DNA of 64,000 bases from Escherichia coli (GTDB taxonomy: Bacteria; Pseudomonadota; Gammaproteobacteria; Enterobacterales; Enterobacteriaceae): the NCBI RefSeq assembly GCF_030013595.1, contig NZ_CP122768.1. One strand, 5' to 3'. The position numbers were made by a program, and so were the translations under genes. The notes beneath the pieces were generated by a model. That model did not search any database, was not told the DNA's origin, and worked only from the letters and a program-made list of their open reading frames with translations. Below, in pieces: positions 17,250 through 49,298 of this stretch (positions within the stretch are counted from its first letter, which is position 1; each line of letters opens with the position of its first letter).

Positions 17250-17330
17250 TCCATGCGGGATAAGGCGTTTACGCCGCATCCGGCATGGATTGCCTGATGC
17301 GACGCTGGCGCGTCTTATCAGGCCAACGTG
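17250..17330. repeat. REP/BIME-type palindromic units between infB and rbfA
   Basis: gcgggataaggcgtttacgccgcatccggca ... tgcctgatgcgacgctggcgcgtcttatcaggcc; characteristic GCCGGATG/CTTATCAGGCC REP signature. Confidence 0.5.
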
Positions 17331-17400
17331 AACAGCCCTTCCACCTGAAATTAATTTTAAAAAGGGGCTAACAGCCCCTTTTTTGTCAGGAGAATTTATT

Positions 17401-24651: not shown

Positions 24652-24681
24652 GCCCCGATTTTTACCATCGGGGCTTTTTTG
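24652..24681 (+). terminator. deaD terminator
   Basis: agccccgat-ttttacc-atcggggctttttt. Confidence 0.6.
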
Positions 24682-24685
24682 TGCA

Positions 24686-25392
24686 CAGAAAACCCCCAGC
24701 TAGGCTGGGGGTTCCGGAAAGCTTTCAGCTTTGAGCCAGTTATTAAAACCCCTTTTGATTTGTTAAAACACCTTGCGGTCTGGCAACTGCAAGTGTCAAA
24801 CAAGAAATCAAAAGGGGGTCCCAATGGGGGACGAAAAGAGCTTAGCGCACACCCGCTGGAACTGTAAATATCACATAGTTTTTGCGCCGAAATACCGAAG
24901 ACTGGCGTTTTACGGAGAGAAGCGTAGGGCGATAGGCAGTATTTTGAGAAAGCTGTGTGAGTGGAAAAGCGTACGGATTCTGGAAGCAGAGTGCTGCGCA
25001 GATCATATCCATATGCTTGTGGAAATCCCACCCAAAATGAGCGTATCCGGCTTTATGGGATATCTGAAAGGGAAAAGCAGTCTGATGCTTTACGAGCAGT
25101 TTGGGGATTTGAAATTCAAATACAGAAACAGGGAGTTCTGGTGCCGAGGGTACTATGTCGATACGGTGGGTAAGAACACGGCGAAGATACAGGACTACAT
25201 AAAGCACCAGCTTGAAGAGGATAAAATGGGGGAGCAGTTATCGATTCCATATCCGGGCAGCCCGTTTACGGGCCGTAAGTAACGAAGTTGAATGCAAATG
25301 TCAGATCGTATGCGCCTGTTAGGGCGCGGCTGGTAACAGAGCCTTACAGGCGCATTTGAAAAACCTCCGGCTATGCCGGAGGATATTTATTC
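24686..25392 (+). mobile_element. IS200 insertion sequence (IS200/IS605 family), about 0.7 kb, boundaries approximate
   Basis: Contains an intact 152-aa TnpA nearly identical to my recollection of Salmonella IS200 TnpA; a perfect hairpin ccccagc-tag-gctgggg (24694-24712) and a second stem ccccttttgatt...aatcaaaagggg that would sequester the tnpA RBS are the IS200 left-end hallmarks; no terminal inverted repeats, as expected for this family. Confidence 0.8.
24824..25282 (+). CDS. tnpA: IS200 transposase TnpA (HUH Y1 single-strand transposase)
   Basis: MGDEKSLAHTRWNCKYHIVFAPKYRR...HIHMLVEIPP...: HxH (HUH) motif and catalytic Tyr region; 152 aa. Confidence 0.9.
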   Translation: MGDEKSLAHTRWNCKYHIVFAPKYRRLAFYGEKRRAIGSILRKLCEWKSVRILEAECCADHIHMLVEIPPKMSVSGFMGYLKGKSSLMLYEQFGDLKFKYRNREFWCRGYYVDTVGKNTAKIQDYIKHQLEEDKMGEQLSIPYPGSPFTGRK

Positions 25393-38820: not shown

Positions 38821-38869
38821 TTACAGGCGTCGCAGCAGGAATAGCGTTGCAACGCCTGTAGCAGGCGAG

Positions 38870-39637
38870 TTAACGACGACACATCTCATCAATCATGCAT
38901 GTGAAATAGTTATGCAGCCATAAAAATGAAGCCGGGATAGCGGTAGAGACTTTAGCCGTGAGAAAACGTTCTGTCGCATCCTGCTTTCCTTCGCCAGTCA
39001 CCAGTAACAAAACTTCGCGGGCATTGAGAATATCCTTCAGGCCTAAGGTGATCCCACGAGTCACGGGACGGCCCGCGGTTTTTAACATCTCATGTTGCTG
39101 TGTTCTGGCATCAAGTTGACTGATATGGCAGGCCGGTTGCAGGTTTTCTCCCGGTTCGTTCAGCCCAAGATGACCGTTTTTCCCCAATCCGAGAACGCAT
39201 AAATCCAGACCGCCTTTGCGCGCAATCAGGTTCGTTACCCGTTCGCACTCTGTCTCATTTATCTCTTCGGAGCGAAAGCTGATGAGCTGGTCTTCACGTA
39301 GCCCCAGCGGCTGCACGATATGCTGTTGCAGGAAAGTTTCGCAGGTACCAGGCATCGTTAATGGCAGATCCACCCATTCGTCGAGCTTCACGAAGGTGAG
39401 CTGGCTGACATCAACCTGCTGCTGGTGGATTTTTTCTACCAGATAATGATACGTCAGTAATGGCGTGGCTCCGGTCGCCAGGCAAATCACGGCATCCGGT
39501 TTGCTACGGATCACGGCCAATAAATATTCGCTGGCACGTTCACTTAACGCCGTATAGTTTTCAACTTGTTGAAGGGTTTGCACAGGATGAAATTCCTTAA
39601 GTAAAGAGGCACCGCCAGACGCAGTGCCTCGTTCCAT
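38870..39637 (-). CDS. agaI: Galactosamine-6-phosphate deaminase/isomerase (NagB-like)
   Basis: 255-aa ORF, last gene of the aga cluster; start not independently verified. Confidence 0.85.
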   Translation of the reverse strand: MERGTASGGASLLKEFHPVQTLQQVENYTALSERASEYLLAVIRSKPDAVICLATGATPLLTYHYLVEKIHQQQVDVSQLTFVKLDEWVDLPLTMPGTCETFLQQHIVQPLGLREDQLISFRSEEINETECERVTNLIARKGGLDLCVLGLGKNGHLGLNEPGENLQPACHISQLDARTQQHEMLKTAGRPVTRGITLGLKDILNAREVLLLVTGEGKQDATERFLTAKVSTAIPASFLWLHNYFTCMIDEMCRR

Positions 39638-42776: not shown

Positions 42777-43931
42777 TTATGCCTGCCACGGATGAATGAT
42801 TACGCCTTGCACCACGCGGTTAACGGTGCCGCTGGCTGATGGGGTATCCGGCGTATTGCCCATGTGCAGCGACTGCATCAGTGCAAACGTCTGGGCGTAC
42901 ATCAGGAAGCAAAATGCCTGCTCAACGTCGATAAAGTGACGGGACGGCGGCAGGATGATATGTGGACCGGCGGTAATAACGTCGTTGCTTTCCGCGGCGA
43001 TAGCGATTACGCGTATCGCCTGGTTATCGCGGCGAAGTTCAGCCAGCAGATCAAGATCATACTGACGGGTGTAAGGGTGGCTGGAGACAAATACCACCAC
43101 CAGCGTTTCGTTATCGACCAGCGATTTCGGGCCATGACGGAATCCGGTCGGGGAATCATAAAAGGCCGCCAGTTTACCCGCCGTCAGTTCCAGCACTTTC
43201 AGCGCCGACTCGCGTGCTGCGCCCTGTAAGCCACCGCTGCCGAGATAAACGATCCGTTTCCACGGTGCGTAACCAAACACACCTTCGCTGAAATCGCCCA
43301 GTGAGGTCAGGATCGCCTGGCAACGTTCCGCCACGTCGCGGAAGCTCTGGCTGTTGATCGTCTCAGGTGCGAAAACCGCGAGGCAGCTGGCCATCATGGT
43401 GGTAATGCTGCTGGTCATCGCAAAGCCGCGATCGTGCGTTTCTGCGGGCATCAGCAGGGCAAACGCGTTGTCGCTGTTGATCGCATTTTGGTAAAGAGCG
43501 CCCGCTTCGTTGCAGGTGATCGGCAGGTGATAGCACTCGGGTACAAATTGATTTGCCAGTTCCACGGCGGCGACGCTTTCCGGGCTGTTGCCGGATCGAC
43601 CGAAGGAGATCAACAGCAGTGGATGAGCTGGATTCAGGTAGTCCATCGGATTGGTGACCAGATCGGTGGTCGGTACGGCGCTGAAGTTTTTACCTGTATG
43701 GCTGGCGAGCCACGGCGCGATGATGTCACCGATAAATGCCGAGGTTCCGGCTCCGGTCAGGATTACCCGCAGATTCTCTTTGCGCAGTAACGGTTCAAGG
43801 AAGTTATTGAGCGCGGGACGTAGCGCGTCGATGTTGGTGAGTGAACGGATCCATGCGCGAGGCTGATGGCGGATCTCTTCTTCAGTCCATGTACCGGTTG
43901 CGGCAGCAGCAGGGGTGTAATTTTCTGGCAT
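42777..43931 (-). CDS. agaS: SIS-domain sugar isomerase/deaminase AgaS
   Basis: 384-aa ORF with tandem SIS domains. Confidence 0.9.
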   Translation of the reverse strand: MPENYTPAAAATGTWTEEEIRHQPRAWIRSLTNIDALRPALNNFLEPLLRKENLRVILTGAGTSAFIGDIIAPWLASHTGKNFSAVPTTDLVTNPMDYLNPAHPLLLISFGRSGNSPESVAAVELANQFVPECYHLPITCNEAGALYQNAINSDNAFALLMPAETHDRGFAMTSSITTMMASCLAVFAPETINSQSFRDVAERCQAILTSLGDFSEGVFGYAPWKRIVYLGSGGLQGAARESALKVLELTAGKLAAFYDSPTGFRHGPKSLVDNETLVVVFVSSHPYTRQYDLDLLAELRRDNQAIRVIAIAAESNDVITAGPHIILPPSRHFIDVEQAFCFLMYAQTFALMQSLHMGNTPDTPSASGTVNRVVQGVIIHPWQA

Positions 43932-44120
43932 AACTCAATCCTTAGTCTGATGAACTTGACGTCGGGCGTTGTCGCTTTCGCTTACCTTTCGTTTCATTTC
44001 ACTTGGTGATGTCTTTCGTTGATTAAAATCTATAGAAAAGAAACTGAAAGTTCAATGGAGAAAAAAGAAATAAAACGAAATTTGTGATCGTTGAAAGAAA
44101 AGACAAGGGAAGATTAAAGA
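43932..44120 (-). promoter_or_regulatory. agaS promoter region with repeated CTTTCG/CGAAAG motifs (candidate AgaR operator)
   Basis: ctttcgcttacctttcgtttcatttcac, ctttcgttgatt, aaacgaaatttg, gttgaaagaaaag; the same motif family recurs in the agaR-kbaZ intergenic region. Confidence 0.5.
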
Positions 44121-44142
44121 ATTGCATGATGACGTTGCTATG

Positions 44143-44212
44143 TGCACCGATTGCCGGATGCGGCGTACCGTAGGTCGCATAAGACGCGTCAGCGTCGCAT
44201 CCGACACCGCTG
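44143..44212. repeat. REP-like palindromic element between agaA and agaS
   Basis: gccggatgcggcgtaccgtaggtcgcataagacgcgtcagcgtcgcatccgac. Confidence 0.45.
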
Positions 44213-44281
44213 CACAGATCAAAAAGAAAGAAAAAGAAAGGCCTTACGGGGGAAGTGAAGGCCCAATAAAGGAGCAAACCA

Positions 44282-45415
44282 TCAAAACGAAGCTAATTGA
44301 CCCTGAATCCAGATTTGTTGCACATGCAGCCCGCTATCCAGCGCAACGACGCTGGCGCGTTTGCCCGGTTTAAGCGATCCCAGAACATCATCAACACCCA
44401 GCATACGCGCCGGATGCAGCGACGCCATATGGATGGCTTCCGCAGGCGTTACGTCCGTCAACTCGACCATATTGCGCACTGCCGCATCAACAGACAGCGT
44501 ACTGCCCGCCAGTCCACCGGACGCGGTACGGACAACGCCACCGTGCATCTGCACTTCTTCGCCACATAACGTATAGCGACCATCCGGCATCCCGGCTGCC
44601 TGCATCGCGTCGGTGATCAGCACGATTCTCTCTTTCGCACAGCAACAACACAGCGACATCGCCGCCGGATGCACATGATGACCATCGGCTATCAGTTCCA
44701 GCCAGGCGCGCTTGTCCGTTAATCCCGCGCCAACCATTCCCGGTTCGCGGTGATGTAAACCTGTCATCCCGTTATAGCAATGCACCAGGCCGTCGGCACC
44801 AGCGTCAAACGCGGCACGGGTTTGTTGCCAGGTCGCCGCGCTATGCCCCAGTATCACCCGTACGTTTTGCTGTTTAAGATGGCGGATGGCCTGCAATGCC
44901 CCTTCTTTTTCCGGTGCCAGCGCTACCACGCGCAAGGTGTGCTGAGAAACGGCAATCAATTGATCCAGCTCGGCAATTTCCAGCTCGCGAAACAGCTCCG
45001 GCGGATGCGCGCCTTTATTCTGCGGCGTGAAGTACGGTCCTTCGAGATAACTCCCCAGCACTTGCGCACCAGGTCCGCCGCGTTGGCAACGTTGAGCAAT
45101 ACGTTTCAGCGCCGCATGAATGGTATTAAGCGGCGCGGTTACGGTGGTCGGTAACCAACTGCCGACACCTTCGCGTGCTTTGTGCATTGCCAGCTTGTCG
45201 AGCACATCCGGCGCGTCATCCATTACATCAACGCCCGCACCACCATGTACATGGGTGTCGATGTAAGCGGGGCAGAGCAGTTCCGCATCGCGTTCAGTCA
45301 CGCCCACTGGAATCGGTTCGATTGCTGAGATTACACCGTCAGCAATACGCAACTGATGGTCATCGAGCCATCCCTCTTCAGTCAGCAGCCTTCTGGCGCG
45401 CAGAACGTGTGTCAT
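44282..45415 (-). CDS. agaA: N-acetylgalactosamine-6-phosphate deacetylase, full length
   Basis: Start placed at MTHVLRARRLL (377 aa); NagA-like metal-binding motifs; uninterrupted frame. Confidence 0.9.
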   Translation of the reverse strand: MTHVLRARRLLTEEGWLDDHQLRIADGVISAIEPIPVGVTERDAELLCPAYIDTHVHGGAGVDVMDDAPDVLDKLAMHKAREGVGSWLPTTVTAPLNTIHAALKRIAQRCQRGGPGAQVLGSYLEGPYFTPQNKGAHPPELFRELEIAELDQLIAVSQHTLRVVALAPEKEGALQAIRHLKQQNVRVILGHSAATWQQTRAAFDAGADGLVHCYNGMTGLHHREPGMVGAGLTDKRAWLELIADGHHVHPAAMSLCCCCAKERIVLITDAMQAAGMPDGRYTLCGEEVQMHGGVVRTASGGLAGSTLSVDAAVRNMVELTDVTPAEAIHMASLHPARMLGVDDVLGSLKPGKRASVVALDSGLHVQQIWIQGQLASF

Positions 45416-45846
45416 ATTCCTTCCTCGACCGGACATTCTTCATGGCAGCGGCCTAACTCGTCCACCAAACTGGTCAGCCCACGGTGTCCACACTCCAGCG
45501 CCTGCACACGGAACTCTTCACCGCTTAACCCTTCGCGCTCCAGCACCATCTCCAGTAGCAGTTGCAAATTGGTGCCGGTGATCACTTCACAGCCCGGTTT
45601 TTGCATCGCCAGCGTTGAAGCTACGCGAAACGGCGTGCCGCCCAGCAAATCCGTCAGAAAAACAATGCCGTCTTCACAATCGAGTTGGGCGATGGCCTCT
45701 TCAAGCTGCGATGTAAGCTGCGCGGTGCTTGAGGTTTCGGGAAAATCGATGGCAATAAACTGCGATTGCTCGCCGAGGATTTGCTTCATTGCTTTTTCCA
45801 TGCCACTGGCAAATCCGCCATGCCCTGTCAAAATAATACTTAACAT
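45412..45846 (-). CDS. agaF: PTS N-acetylgalactosamine-specific EIIA component
   Basis: 144-aa mannose-family IIA ORF, overlapping the agaA start by 4 nt. Confidence 0.9.
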   Translation of the reverse strand: MLSIILTGHGGFASGMEKAMKQILGEQSQFIAIDFPETSSTAQLTSQLEEAIAQLDCEDGIVFLTDLLGGTPFRVASTLAMQKPGCEVITGTNLQLLLEMVLEREGLSGEEFRVQALECGHRGLTSLVDELGRCHEECPVEEGI

Positions 45847-45863
45847 CTAATACCTCATTGTAT

Positions 45864-46748
45864 TTAAAGGAAATGACAGAATTTACCGACGATGCCGAGT
45901 ACCACGGTAACTGCAATCAGGCGCAGCGGACTCCAGCCGCGGCGTACCAGCCAGAACATGGTCAGGGTGTAGACCAGCGGTAAGAAGGCAGGCATCAGTT
46001 TGTCGATAACATCAGCCTGTAACTTAACCACTGCGTCGCCAGCGGTGATTTCCAGCGTGGTGCTTAAACGAACATAGGTTGCCACCAGCGCGCCGATTAC
46101 CGTCATCCCAACGATTGACGCAGCATGGCCGACTTTTTTGGTATTCGCTTTAATGAGTGGAATCGCCGCCACGCCCATGCGGTAAGCATAATGCGCCAGA
46201 CCAAAACGCAGCCCCAGGTGTACCACGTTGAACAGAACAATAAATACGACTGCGCCAAGAATGGAGCCTTGTAATGCCAGACTGGCACCAATCCCGCCAC
46301 AAATCGGCAGTAGCGTTAGCCAGAACATCGCATCGCCAATCCCGCCAAGCGGCGCACCGACGGCAATTTTGGTGCTCTGAATACTGTTAACGTCCTGCTT
46401 AGAACGCTCCATCGCAAGGATAATGCCGATAACAAACGTCACCAGAAACGGATGGGTATTGAAGAAACCCATATGCCCCTTCATGGCGCGCGCCAGGTCG
46501 CGTTTATTAGTGTGGATCTTTTTCAGAGCAGGCAGCAGACCGTACAACCAGCCGGAAGCCTGCATACGTTCGTAGTTAAAAGACGCTTGTAACAGCATGG
46601 AACGCCAGGCGACGCGGTTGATATCTTTTTTTGTCAGCTCCGCGCCAATACTCTGATCTTCATACACGTTTTCATTGACGCCTGTCAGCAGTGTTTCTTC
46701 GTTTTCACTGACGTTCGGCAGGGTGGTTTGATTAGATGCCATCTTCAA
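45864..46748 (-). CDS. agaE: PTS N-acetylgalactosamine-specific EIID component
   Basis: 294-aa ORF, paralogue of agaD. Confidence 0.9.
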   Translation of the reverse strand: MKMASNQTTLPNVSENEETLLTGVNENVYEDQSIGAELTKKDINRVAWRSMLLQASFNYERMQASGWLYGLLPALKKIHTNKRDLARAMKGHMGFFNTHPFLVTFVIGIILAMERSKQDVNSIQSTKIAVGAPLGGIGDAMFWLTLLPICGGIGASLALQGSILGAVVFIVLFNVVHLGLRFGLAHYAYRMGVAAIPLIKANTKKVGHAASIVGMTVIGALVATYVRLSTTLEITAGDAVVKLQADVIDKLMPAFLPLVYTLTMFWLVRRGWSPLRLIAVTVVLGIVGKFCHFL

Positions 46749-47511
46749 ATTCCTCTTTCTGTGCCGCAGGTTGAGTCGGTTCAGGAGATTTACGCAGCAG
46801 GTCGATCAGCGCCATCGCCAGCGCGGCGGCAGCAATAGCCAGCACCGGTAACTTGAGCCAGGCTGCGGCAACAAAGCCCAGGATGAAGTAGGGGATGTAG
46901 ACGTTTTTCATCATGATTTTCAGCAGCACGGCAAAACCGATTGCTGGCATGATGCCGCCCGCGACGCCGAGGCCGTCGATTAATCGTTGCGGCAGGACAT
47001 CAATGATGGTTTTGGCATGTTCTGCGCCGAAGTAGATAGGCAGGAAAGCGCAGAGAAAATAGAAAGTGCCGAGTGCCAACAGTGCCAGATAGTTCACGCG
47101 TTCAATGCCGCGTGTATCGGCGTTCTCCGCCATCCGGTCGCAGCGGGACATTACGCCAGACATCACCGAGAACAGGAAGGTAATCCCCATCTGTACTGCG
47201 ACAGCGAAAGGTACGGCGACACCGACCGCGACATCGGGTTTCACGCCAGTAGTAATGGCAAACGCCGTGCCGACGATAGTACCGATAATCACGTTAGGCG
47301 GCTGTGCGCCCGCCAGCGGGGCCAGCCCCATCCACACCAGTTCCAGCGTACCGCCGGTTAAAATACCGGTATGCAGATCGCCAAGTACCAGCCCGACTAA
47401 CGGGCCGAGGACCACCGGGCGGTGCATATGGGTTAAGCCGTTAAACATATCCAGGCCAGCGATAAAGGCGATAATGCCCAACGCGAATGCCTGCAACAGA
47501 CTGATTTCCAT
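46732..47511 (-). CDS. agaW: PTS N-acetylgalactosamine-specific EIIC component, full length
   Basis: 259-aa membrane ORF, paralogue of agaC, uninterrupted. Confidence 0.9.
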   Translation of the reverse strand: MEISLLQAFALGIIAFIAGLDMFNGLTHMHRPVVLGPLVGLVLGDLHTGILTGGTLELVWMGLAPLAGAQPPNVIIGTIVGTAFAITTGVKPDVAVGVAVPFAVAVQMGITFLFSVMSGVMSRCDRMAENADTRGIERVNYLALLALGTFYFLCAFLPIYFGAEHAKTIIDVLPQRLIDGLGVAGGIMPAIGFAVLLKIMMKNVYIPYFILGFVAAAWLKLPVLAIAAAALAMALIDLLRKSPEPTQPAAQKEEFEDGI

Positions 47512-47521
47512 GATGAATCCC

Positions 47522-47995
47522 TCAAAGTAATTTAAAGAGGTCCACAGCAGGCTCTGTCGGGACGCCCTGAACGAAGCATTCCACCCCAGCGGCTTTCAGG
47601 TCGTTAAATGCTGCGATATCGCCCGCATCCACAGAAACCGTTTTGGCGATTTGTTGCTTGCCATTGGCGTAGTGCATATTGCCAACGTTAATGCGATTCA
47701 CCGGAACGCCACCTTTCACCAGCGTCAGGAAATCGGCAGGTGTTTTACAAACCAGCAGGATTTTCTGTCGATCGGCGGCGCGATGAATGTTGTCGATGAC
47801 TTTTTGCAGCGTCCAGAAACGTACGGCGATCCCTTCTGCCAGTACCATTTCCATCAGGTTTTGTTGTACCGGATCTTCGGCAACCTCATCGTTGGCTACC
47901 AGCACCAGATTTGCCCCCGCAAATCCGACCCACTGAACGCCGACCTGACCGTGAATCAAGCGTTCATCAATCCGGCTTAAAACAATATTTGGCAT
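47522..47995 (-). CDS. agaV: PTS N-acetylgalactosamine-specific EIIB component
   Basis: Start placed at MPNIVLSRIDERLIHGQ (157 aa). Confidence 0.9.
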   Translation of the reverse strand: MPNIVLSRIDERLIHGQVGVQWVGFAGANLVLVANDEVAEDPVQQNLMEMVLAEGIAVRFWTLQKVIDNIHRAADRQKILLVCKTPADFLTLVKGGVPVNRINVGNMHYANGKQQIAKTVSVDAGDIAAFNDLKAAGVECFVQGVPTEPAVDLFKLL

Positions 47996-48017
47996 AGCGT
48001 GTTCCTCTTTGTTTTGC

Positions 48018-49298
48018 TTATTGGCCTTCACAGGCTGTGTGGTACTGCGCCAGGATGTCCTGAATATGGTTGATAATGAGTTCCCGTGGCGTCGGTTGCA
48101 GCTCGCCGGAGCGAACTTTCACGTACTGCAGCGGCAGATACTGACTGATCAGCGGTAGCGGAATTGGTGAATCCGCCAGATTACGAACCAGATGAGCGAA
48201 AGCGTCATCAATCTGGCTGTCTGGCCAGTAATAGCGCACGCGATCTGAGTAGCTATAACCACGCGCCAGACGACGCGCGTTGCCGTCACCGTGGTAGTGG
48301 CTTTGCCAGTATTCCGGGCGGTCGAGCATCACGTTTTCCAGCACCTGACGCAGACCAGAACAGGCTTTTGCTGGCACCAGTTCTTCTTCAATCGCTGCCA
48401 GAGAGAACAGAGCTTCACGCAGGGCGAAGGTCAGCGCCGGGCCAACTTTCAGAATGGCAAAGTGGTCAATCACCAGCTGGCGCAGCGATTGCGGCGTTTG
48501 ATAATCGGTAGAGTGCGCTTCGAAAATCAGCGTTTCGTAGTTTTCGACCATCTGGCTTAAGGCGGTCGCTTTAGCTGGCTGATAATCAATAACGTTGGTG
48601 TGATCGAATTCGACGCCGGGTTGTACCACCAGAGCAATGATGCGTGGCCAGATGGCACTCAGACCTTGCTTTTCAAAGGCGTGACGATGGGCTTCCAGCG
48701 TGGCACGGGCGGCATCCGGCGTGGTGACCGCCAGCTCGCTTAAGGTTTCATGCGCGCCGCCAGGTACCGGTACTTCGGTCCCAATGACATACACGAGATC
48801 GGCTTCGCCAAAGTGTTCACGACAGGTTTCTTCCGCCACTTTCGCCAGACGTGCGGCGCGTTCAGCCACGATGTCATCAGTTAAGGGAACCGGATCGTCC
48901 TGACAGGACATGCTGCAATCAAGGTGAATTTTTTTGAATCCTGCCGCCACGTAGCTTTTAATCAAATCATCGGCATTGGCCATTGCCTGAGCGGCAGGCA
49001 GGCTTTGCCAGCGGTTTGGACCCAGATGGTCGCCACCCAGAATCAACGCATCCTGTGGGAAATTCAACGAGTCGGCGAGCTGACAAACAAAGCCGCGAAA
49101 ATCGGCGGGCGTCATTCCGGTATAACCGCCGAACTGGTCCACCTGATTGGAGGTTGCTTCAATCAGTAACGGCGTTTGGTTTGCACTGGCGTAGCGGATT
49201 GCAGCTTCCAGCACCAGCGGATGTGCGGAACAAACGGCATAAATCCCATTTGTTTTGCCCTCTTTGTGCTGTCTCACCATTTCTGTCAGATGTTTCAC
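48018..49298 (-). CDS. kbaZ: Tagatose-bisphosphate aldolase non-catalytic subunit KbaZ
   Basis: 426-aa ORF of the GatZ/KbaZ family. Confidence 0.92.

Follow-up and report, generated by a model that had tools for sequence, protein, structure and literature searches.

CTTTCG repeats in the agaA-agaS gap of an intact Escherichia coli aga/gam locus, read as a promoter-operator region under AgaR

Within the aga/gam cluster of Escherichia coli, the genes agaA and agaS are separated by a gap in which the hexamer CTTTCG recurs, and the locus raises the question of whether such repeats mark a promoter through which the repressor AgaR controls agaS and the genes behind it. A preliminary description of the window, by which we mean the whole 64-kb stretch of DNA that was analysed, had suggested exactly this: an internal AgaR-controlled promoter for agaS-kbaY-agaBCDI. 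We are highly confident that positions 43932-44120 serve as promoter and operator of Ps (agaS) in the aga/gam regulon and are subject to AgaR repression; the rest of the gap (44121-44281) consists of the agaA terminator and a REP/BIME element. The reading of the repeat cluster as the Ps promoter and AgaR operator is correct but already known, and in that sense ordinary.

The gap, its genes and the distribution of the repeats

The aga/gam cluster of the window is intact and lies on the minus strand. Its regulator gene agaR (49547-50356, plus strand) encodes a DeoR/GlpR-family repressor (NF040755 AgaR, 465.9 bits, cutoff 260) that is identical to AgaR of K-12 at 268 of 269 residues, and it lies in the same cluster, 5.6 kb from the agaS operators. 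On the minus strand, kbaZ (48018-49298) is the first gene of kbaZ-agaVWEFA; agaV, agaW, agaE and agaF are all present between it and agaA (44282-45436), which is full-length and labelled nagA by PGAP. The next gene, agaS (42777-43931, minus strand), encodes an AgaS-family sugar isomerase/deaminase (TIGR02815, 630.8 bits) and heads agaS-kbaY-agaBCDI, with kbaY, agaB, agaC and agaD downstream of it in that order on the same strand, and agaI at 38870-39637 (minus strand). The start codon of agaS occupies 43931-43929 and its Shine-Dalgarno sequence AAGGA 43939-43943, both on the minus strand, the latter within a CTAAGGA that is kept across genera. The agaA-agaS gap thus spans 43932-44281, and the 350 bp given for it in the preliminary description are exact.

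Several features of the surroundings may be recorded here in their own right. The stretch 44282-48031 has the intact, non-K-12 form of the aga cluster, with agaW, agaE, agaF and full-length agaA. Directly after agaI comes rsmI (yraL), 49 bp away across 38821-38869, and the yraHIJK fimbrial operon that is found at the agaI-rsmI junction in K-12 is absent here. An IS200C element of the IS200/IS605 family (705 bp, 24681-25385; tnpA at 24773-25282, plus strand) sits in the deaD-mtr intergenic region. Strain KE55 is without IS200C in deaD-mtr and is otherwise about 99% identical across the compared stretches; the 350-bp gap itself, used as a query, is 100% identical to KE55.

The CTTTCG copies in the gap begin at 43975, 43986 and 44013 on the plus strand. 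The 28-nt sequence CTTTCGCTTACCTTTCGTTTCATTTCAC quoted in the preliminary description is located at 43975-44002 (plus strand), and the further CTTTCG/CGAAA copies mentioned there are likewise present, as the third CTTTCG at 44013 and as a CGAAA-containing box at 44067-44080; the A-rich tract corresponds to 44000-44150, which is A-rich on the plus strand with a GC content of 0.29-0.35. Three CTTTCG copies on one strand within 50 nt occur at this place alone in the 64-kb window; when the window was simulated 400 times with a first-order Markov model, such a triple cluster arose in 5 simulations. The spaced form CTTTC-N6-CTTTC has two matches in 64 kb, at 43975 and, by agaR, at 49523-49538, against 0.14 expected.

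A stricter view of the same repeats is given by the 14-nt AgaR core TTTCRTTTYRTTTY, which we take to represent the published AgaR consensus (Ray & Larson 2004) and which was searched for in the 64-kb window with at most one mismatch. Eight matches were obtained where 0.78 were expected, and seven of them fall within the two aga regulatory gaps: at 43987 (plus) and 44067 (minus) in the agaS gap, and at 49334 (plus), 49374, 49418, 49508 and 49513 (all minus) in the agaR-kbaZ gap. Exact matches occupy 43987-44000 (plus) and 44067-44080 (minus). The looser pattern TTTC-N6-TTTC is distributed in the same way, with 7/8 of its matches in the window inside the two gaps. The agaR-kbaZ gap (49299-49546), which the preliminary description had called the first cluster of the same repeats, indeed carries the same 26-nt module, CTTTCG-N5-CTTTCGTTTCATTTC, the agaR-side copy lying at 49508-49538; the module is common to the agaS and agaR leaders and has a like orientation to the downstream gene in both. 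Because an identical module adjoins agaR, this consensus receives independent support. Searches of the literature text for the box sequences returned unrelated matches only, and PMC9189660 and the supplements of PMC11806353 yielded no AgaR site sequence.

Outside the aga gaps, a one-mismatch match to the AgaR core, GTTCATTTCATTTT, occurs at 60582-60595 (plus strand) in the tdcR-tdcA regulatory region, where it adjoins a CRP-like site with one mismatch at 60560-60575; this match is probably due to chance.

Conserved boxes around a predicted agaS promoter

The comparison set comprised 80 upstream regions, namely those of 79 Enterobacterales AgaS loci, with one genome per species, and that of the window. 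The taxa sampled were Escherichia, Citrobacter, Enterobacter, Klebsiella, Raoultella, Kluyvera, Salmonella diarizonae, Yersinia, Buttiauxella, Serratia, Cedecea, Mixta and others. In the 59 loci with a measurable gap, agaA lies directly upstream of agaS at a distance of 236-350 bp (427 bp in one); Escherichia loci have gaps of 343-350 bp, and nearly all other genera have shorter ones, of about 236-308 bp.

Two AgaR-type boxes dominate the comparison. Box 1, TTTCGTTTTATTTC (44067-44080, minus strand), is in the sense orientation, coincides with an exact match to the AgaR core and would occupy roughly -60 to -47 relative to the predicted start; it is nearly invariant and was found in 74 of the 80 upstream regions (73 loci and the window), about 150 nt before the agaS ATG. 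The Box 3 module is the copy of CTTTCG-N5-CTTTCGTTTCATTTC at 43975-44000 on the plus strand, antisense to agaS, and its core (43987-44000, about +21 to +34) is present in 79/80 upstream regions at about -70 from the ATG; inverted, and so read on the minus strand from 44000 to 43987, its consensus is GAAA[C/T]GAAACGAAAG. The distance between Box 1 and Box 3 is held at 79-81 nt in 71 of 74 genomes.

Between these boxes, a sequence of the form TTGnnn-17-TAnnnT is found in 78 of the 80 loci, with a spacer of 17 nt in 77. In the window it supplies a predicted -35 element, TTGAAC (44050-44055, minus strand; TTG in 78/80 loci, TTGA in 76/80), and a predicted -10 element, TAGATT (44027-44032, minus strand), whose TAnnnT form is kept in 78/80 and whose variants across the set are TAGATT (58), TAAATT (12) and TACATT (5). 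Box 2, CTTTCAGTTTCTTTTC (44035-44050, minus strand; -30 to -15), fills the spacer. It is a degenerate repeat of the AgaR type, and its counterpart in Yersinia, Buttiauxella, Trabulsiella and others is TTTCGTTTTCTTTT, which differs from the core by one mismatch. Both Box 2 and the T tract of the terminator described below align with the other AgaR boxes.

The CTTTCG hexamers themselves are conserved unevenly, and of the three only the copy at 43986 forms part of the deeply conserved core, those at 43975 and 44013 not being conserved in most other genera. The extra copy at 44013-44018 (plus strand, about +3 to +8) is invariant in 8 E. coli lineages, and the stretch that corresponds to it is variable in most other genera, a few of which have a CGAAAG- or CGAAG-like sequence there. 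The distal copy (43975-43980, plus strand, +41 to +46) is restricted to some E. coli lineages. On the other side of the promoter, the heptamer GATCACA (44083-44089, minus strand), which precedes Box 1 by 2-3 nt, is kept by most of 18 genera and may be either an extension of the operator or a CRP half-site centred near -70.5. The sequence between and flanking the conserved blocks is unconserved, and the blocks are therefore genuine footprints. The repeats between agaA and agaS are real and conserved, and they are not a product of chance.

From this arrangement, transcription of agaS is predicted to start near 44020 (+/-2) and to yield a leader roughly 89 nt long. We infer the precise hexamers and start site, which single boxes are occupied, and any cooperativity or looping that would link Box 1 with Box 3; the box-by-box assignment, together with the position of each box relative to +1, is likewise a prediction, made from conservation. 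A generic promoter and terminator scan of 43800-44400 returned no sigma-70 site and no terminator. The promoter was missed because TTGAAC-17-TAGATT matches the consensus hexamers at just 8 of 12 positions, the scan threshold being 9/12, and the agaA terminator escaped a simple scan because its stem is irregular and was not accepted; both were recovered through comparative analysis. Usable transcription-start data for agaS were not found in the literature searched. The abstract of Ray & Larson is said to place the AgaR sites "upstream from the start sites", a wording that, if accurate for Ps, would conflict with a Box 3 situated in the leader.

The placement of Box 3 in the transcribed leader, which follows from the predicted promoter, also gives some substance to the idea that this region acts in RNA, as a leader structure, a riboswitch or the target of an sRNA in the agaS 5' UTR. 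According to PMC6172242, the sRNA Tpke70 interacts weakly with agaS mRNA in vitro. Against a function in RNA, the predicted 89-nt leader folds no better than its shuffles (z = +0.32). At permissive thresholds, Rfam gave for the gap only a sub-threshold match to naRNA4 (22.5 bits, E 0.13), located in the REP part, and the promoter half matched none of its families. The element naRNA4 is REP-derived. Furthermore, the same module occurs before agaR, and it is used in both orientations, as is typical of DNA sites. We regard an RNA-level role as the least probable of the alternatives considered here, and a DNA operator remains our reading of Box 3.

The agaA terminator, read-through and the REP/BIME element

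Just after the agaA stop codon, a hairpin with a stem of 7+2 bp (44239-44264, minus strand) is followed by the T tract CCTTTCTTTTTCTTTCTTTTTGAT (44218-44241, minus strand), and the two form an intrinsic terminator for the kbaZ-agaVWEFA transcript. A hairpin and then a T tract, about 22 nt past the agaA stop, are present in 57 of 60 agaA-agaS gaps examined, and in 24 sequences the stem shows compensatory, double-sided changes at 9/9 consensus pairs. The E. coli version of this terminator is weak, at about -10 kcal/mol.

That weakness, which makes some read-through likely, is one of two observations in favour of a quite different arrangement, in which agaS would have no promoter of its own and would be transcribed by read-through from the kbaZ promoter, the repeats serving as an AgaR roadblock or as an AT-rich spacer; the other is the failure of the generic scan to find a strong sigma-70 promoter. 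However, such an arrangement would leave unexplained why the -35/-10 pair is kept in 78/80 genomes and why a covarying terminator is conserved upstream of it. It also accords poorly with the activity and inducibility of Ps-lacZ fusions (PMC3668189), and with the fact that Ps has been characterised in K-12 although the agaW-agaA deletion disrupts the upstream operon there. We consider dependence on read-through very improbable. In favour of the internal AgaR-controlled promoter, conserved operators bracket a conserved -35/-10 pair and a conserved terminator stands after agaA, and the same promoter is backed by published experiments in E. coli K-12 and C.

The T tract may have a second use. Its sequence fits TTTC-N6-TTTC (44226-44239), and a near-invariant CTTTCTTTTCCTTTC[G/C/T] directly 3' of the hairpin is found in 45 of the 60 gaps, where the stem sequences diverge. 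The retention of the TTTC-N6-TTTC register and this near invariance in spite of the diverged stems are the reasons for considering 44226-44241 as one more AgaR site, the fourth and a distal one ("Box 0"), perhaps a dual terminator and operator; we rate this as doubtful. Distances between Box 0 and Box 1 were measured as about 102 and about 159 nt and inferred as about 47 nt for the Enterobacter class, and the resulting steps of about 55-57 nt equal an integral number of turns only if the helix has about 11.2 bp per turn. Phasing of these two boxes along the helix was discarded as evidence, there being too few independent gap-length classes and too flexible a parameter.

The REP-like element noted in the preliminary description is also borne out. 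A REP/BIME palindrome, comprising REP cores and the inverted repeats I3 and I4, occupies 44135-44222 with no strand assigned; its REP consensus cores lie at 44153-44166 (plus) and 44192-44205 (minus), with 0-1 mismatch, and the palindrome folds as RNA at -44.7 kcal/mol (z = -3.8). It shares with the REP/BIME elements of E. coli the inverted REP cores, the extragenic position past the end of a gene and the strongly folding palindrome. Among the loci sampled, the REP/BIME of this gap is present in Escherichia sequences only. Two alleles are common in E. coli at the same total gap length, the block that distinguishes them (around 44125-44180) being about 55 nt long: that of the window is also found in E2348/69 and BS-01, the other in K-12, O157:H7, CAR, AVS0196 and E10, and relative to the K-12 allele that of the window has a truncated second REP. 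Inversion of one allele into the other was considered and set aside, the blocks not being reverse complements of one another (as judged by eye on the alignment). When the 350-bp gap is used as a query, 5307 of 5426 complete genomes carry a match covering most of it, with a median of 2 matching places per genome, and the identities fall into two bands, at 95% or more and at about 88-90%, because the REP/BIME has two alleles. Elsewhere in the window, a further BIME with two exact REP cores and a third, degenerate one lies between the infB and rbfA ORFs (17260-17325), and a clear terminator hairpin comes after it at about 17363-17385.

AgaR control of the agaS operon and its relatives

The closest known system is the same locus in E. 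coli K-12, whose Ps promoter and AgaR operators were reportedly described by Ray & Larson in 2004 (Mol Microbiol 51:813; cited in PMC3668189). The 189-nt segment 43932-44120 is 95.2% identical between the two, with 9 substitutions, none of which falls in Box 1, the -35 element, Box 2, the -10 element, the CTTTCG at 44013 or the core of Box 3. The differences are that the distal copy reads CTTTCA in K-12 and CTTTCG in the window (position 43980), that a different REP/BIME allele stands beside Ps, and that the upstream operon suffers a deletion in K-12, whereas the window is intact, with agaW, agaE, agaF and full-length agaA. Since the core elements are all identical, the published K-12 results transfer directly to the window. 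Secondary sources (PMC3668189, PMC4694137, PMC5018945) report that AgaR binds at agaS in K-12, and two AgaR-repressed operons are described in PMC10101011 and PMC4694137. N-acetylgalactosamine (Aga) induced Ps-lacZ 20-fold and Pz-lacZ 5-fold, GlcNAc did not induce Ps, and in E. coli C grown on glycerol, loss of agaR raised agaS 175-fold (PMC3668189).

Taken as a mechanism, the stem-loop and T tract would end the kbaZ-agaVWEFA transcript, and a sigma-70 promoter with its -35 TTGAAC at 44055-44050, a 17-nt spacer and its -10 TAGATT at 44032-44027 would begin a second one near 44020. This promoter is embedded in AgaR operators, which consist of TTTC repeats at spacings of 5 and 10-11 nt, and an AgaR oligomer would occupy boxes over the core promoter and on both sides of it. 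Bound in this manner, AgaR would keep RNA polymerase excluded from the agaS promoter or trapped at it, and growth on N-acetylgalactosamine or galactosamine would release AgaR and allow agaS-kbaY-agaBCDI to be transcribed.

The divergent agaR/kbaZ region (Pr, Pz; 49299-49546) offers a comparison within the same cluster. It has the same TTTC-repeat boxes, with five AgaR-core matches, and, like the agaS gap, a sense box upstream and an inverted box downstream; the boxes are spaced about 40 nt apart there and about 80 nt at agaS. It further differs in carrying a near-consensus CRP site on the kbaZ side, at 49399-49414, with 1 mismatch to TGTGA-N6-TCACA, whereas no CRP site at two or fewer mismatches was found in the agaS gap (43932-44281). 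The presence of such a site at the kbaZ promoter alone fits with Pz being the only one of the two promoters known to need cAMP-CRP; at two or fewer mismatches, a CRP-activated promoter was rejected for the agaS gap.

The CRP search also bears on the suggestion that some other regulator than AgaR, such as CRP, NagC or a nucleoid protein drawn by the AT-rich tract, is the main protein to bind the TTTC repeats, whose resemblance to the agaR-kbaZ region would then come from shared composition. The region is AT-rich, and the conserved GATCACA near Box 1 resembles a CRP half-site, both of which could be expected were this so. Nonetheless, besides the lack of a CRP site in the gap at that threshold, the confinement of the motif, within 64 kb, to the two aga regulatory regions argues against another regulator, as do the reported binding of AgaR at agaS and the lack of induction of Ps by GlcNAc. 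Another regulator as the principal occupant is thus highly unlikely, and AgaR remains the regulator to which we assign the boxes.

The further proposal that the promoter would allow a "Gam half" of the cluster to be regulated separately from the Aga half holds only weakly. The part of it that stands is structural, in that a terminator followed by a promoter splits the cluster into two transcription units. Detectable differences between the operons lie in promoter strength, in fold induction and in the CRP site, which is at the kbaZ promoter only. Separate regulation is weakened by the common repressor and the common inducing sugar, as well as by the roles of agaS and kbaY in both pathways. Indeed, agaS (deaminase) and kbaY (aldolase) are required for Aga as well as Gam utilization (PMC3668189), and because both sugars need them, "Gam half" is a misnomer.

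In a wider family setting, GlpR at glp and DeoR at deo are oligomeric repressors with several operators around a promoter, and in DeoR/GlpR-family control the inducer is a phosphorylated sugar or a pathway intermediate. The recognition sequence at Ps differs from those of the GlpR and DeoR systems, and cooperativity or looping at Ps is putative.

What the segment represents, the Ps promoter and AgaR operator of a textbook-level sugar regulon, has been characterised before, and the finding matters mainly for annotation. The cross-species footprint makes the architecture clear: inverted boxes lie about 80 bp apart round a promoter, with a covarying terminator upstream. If Box 0 were a true site, it could cooperate with Box 1 by looping, or AgaR occupancy could be tied to termination and read-through; the T tract would then be a small, neat dual-use terminator and operator joining two adjacent operons.
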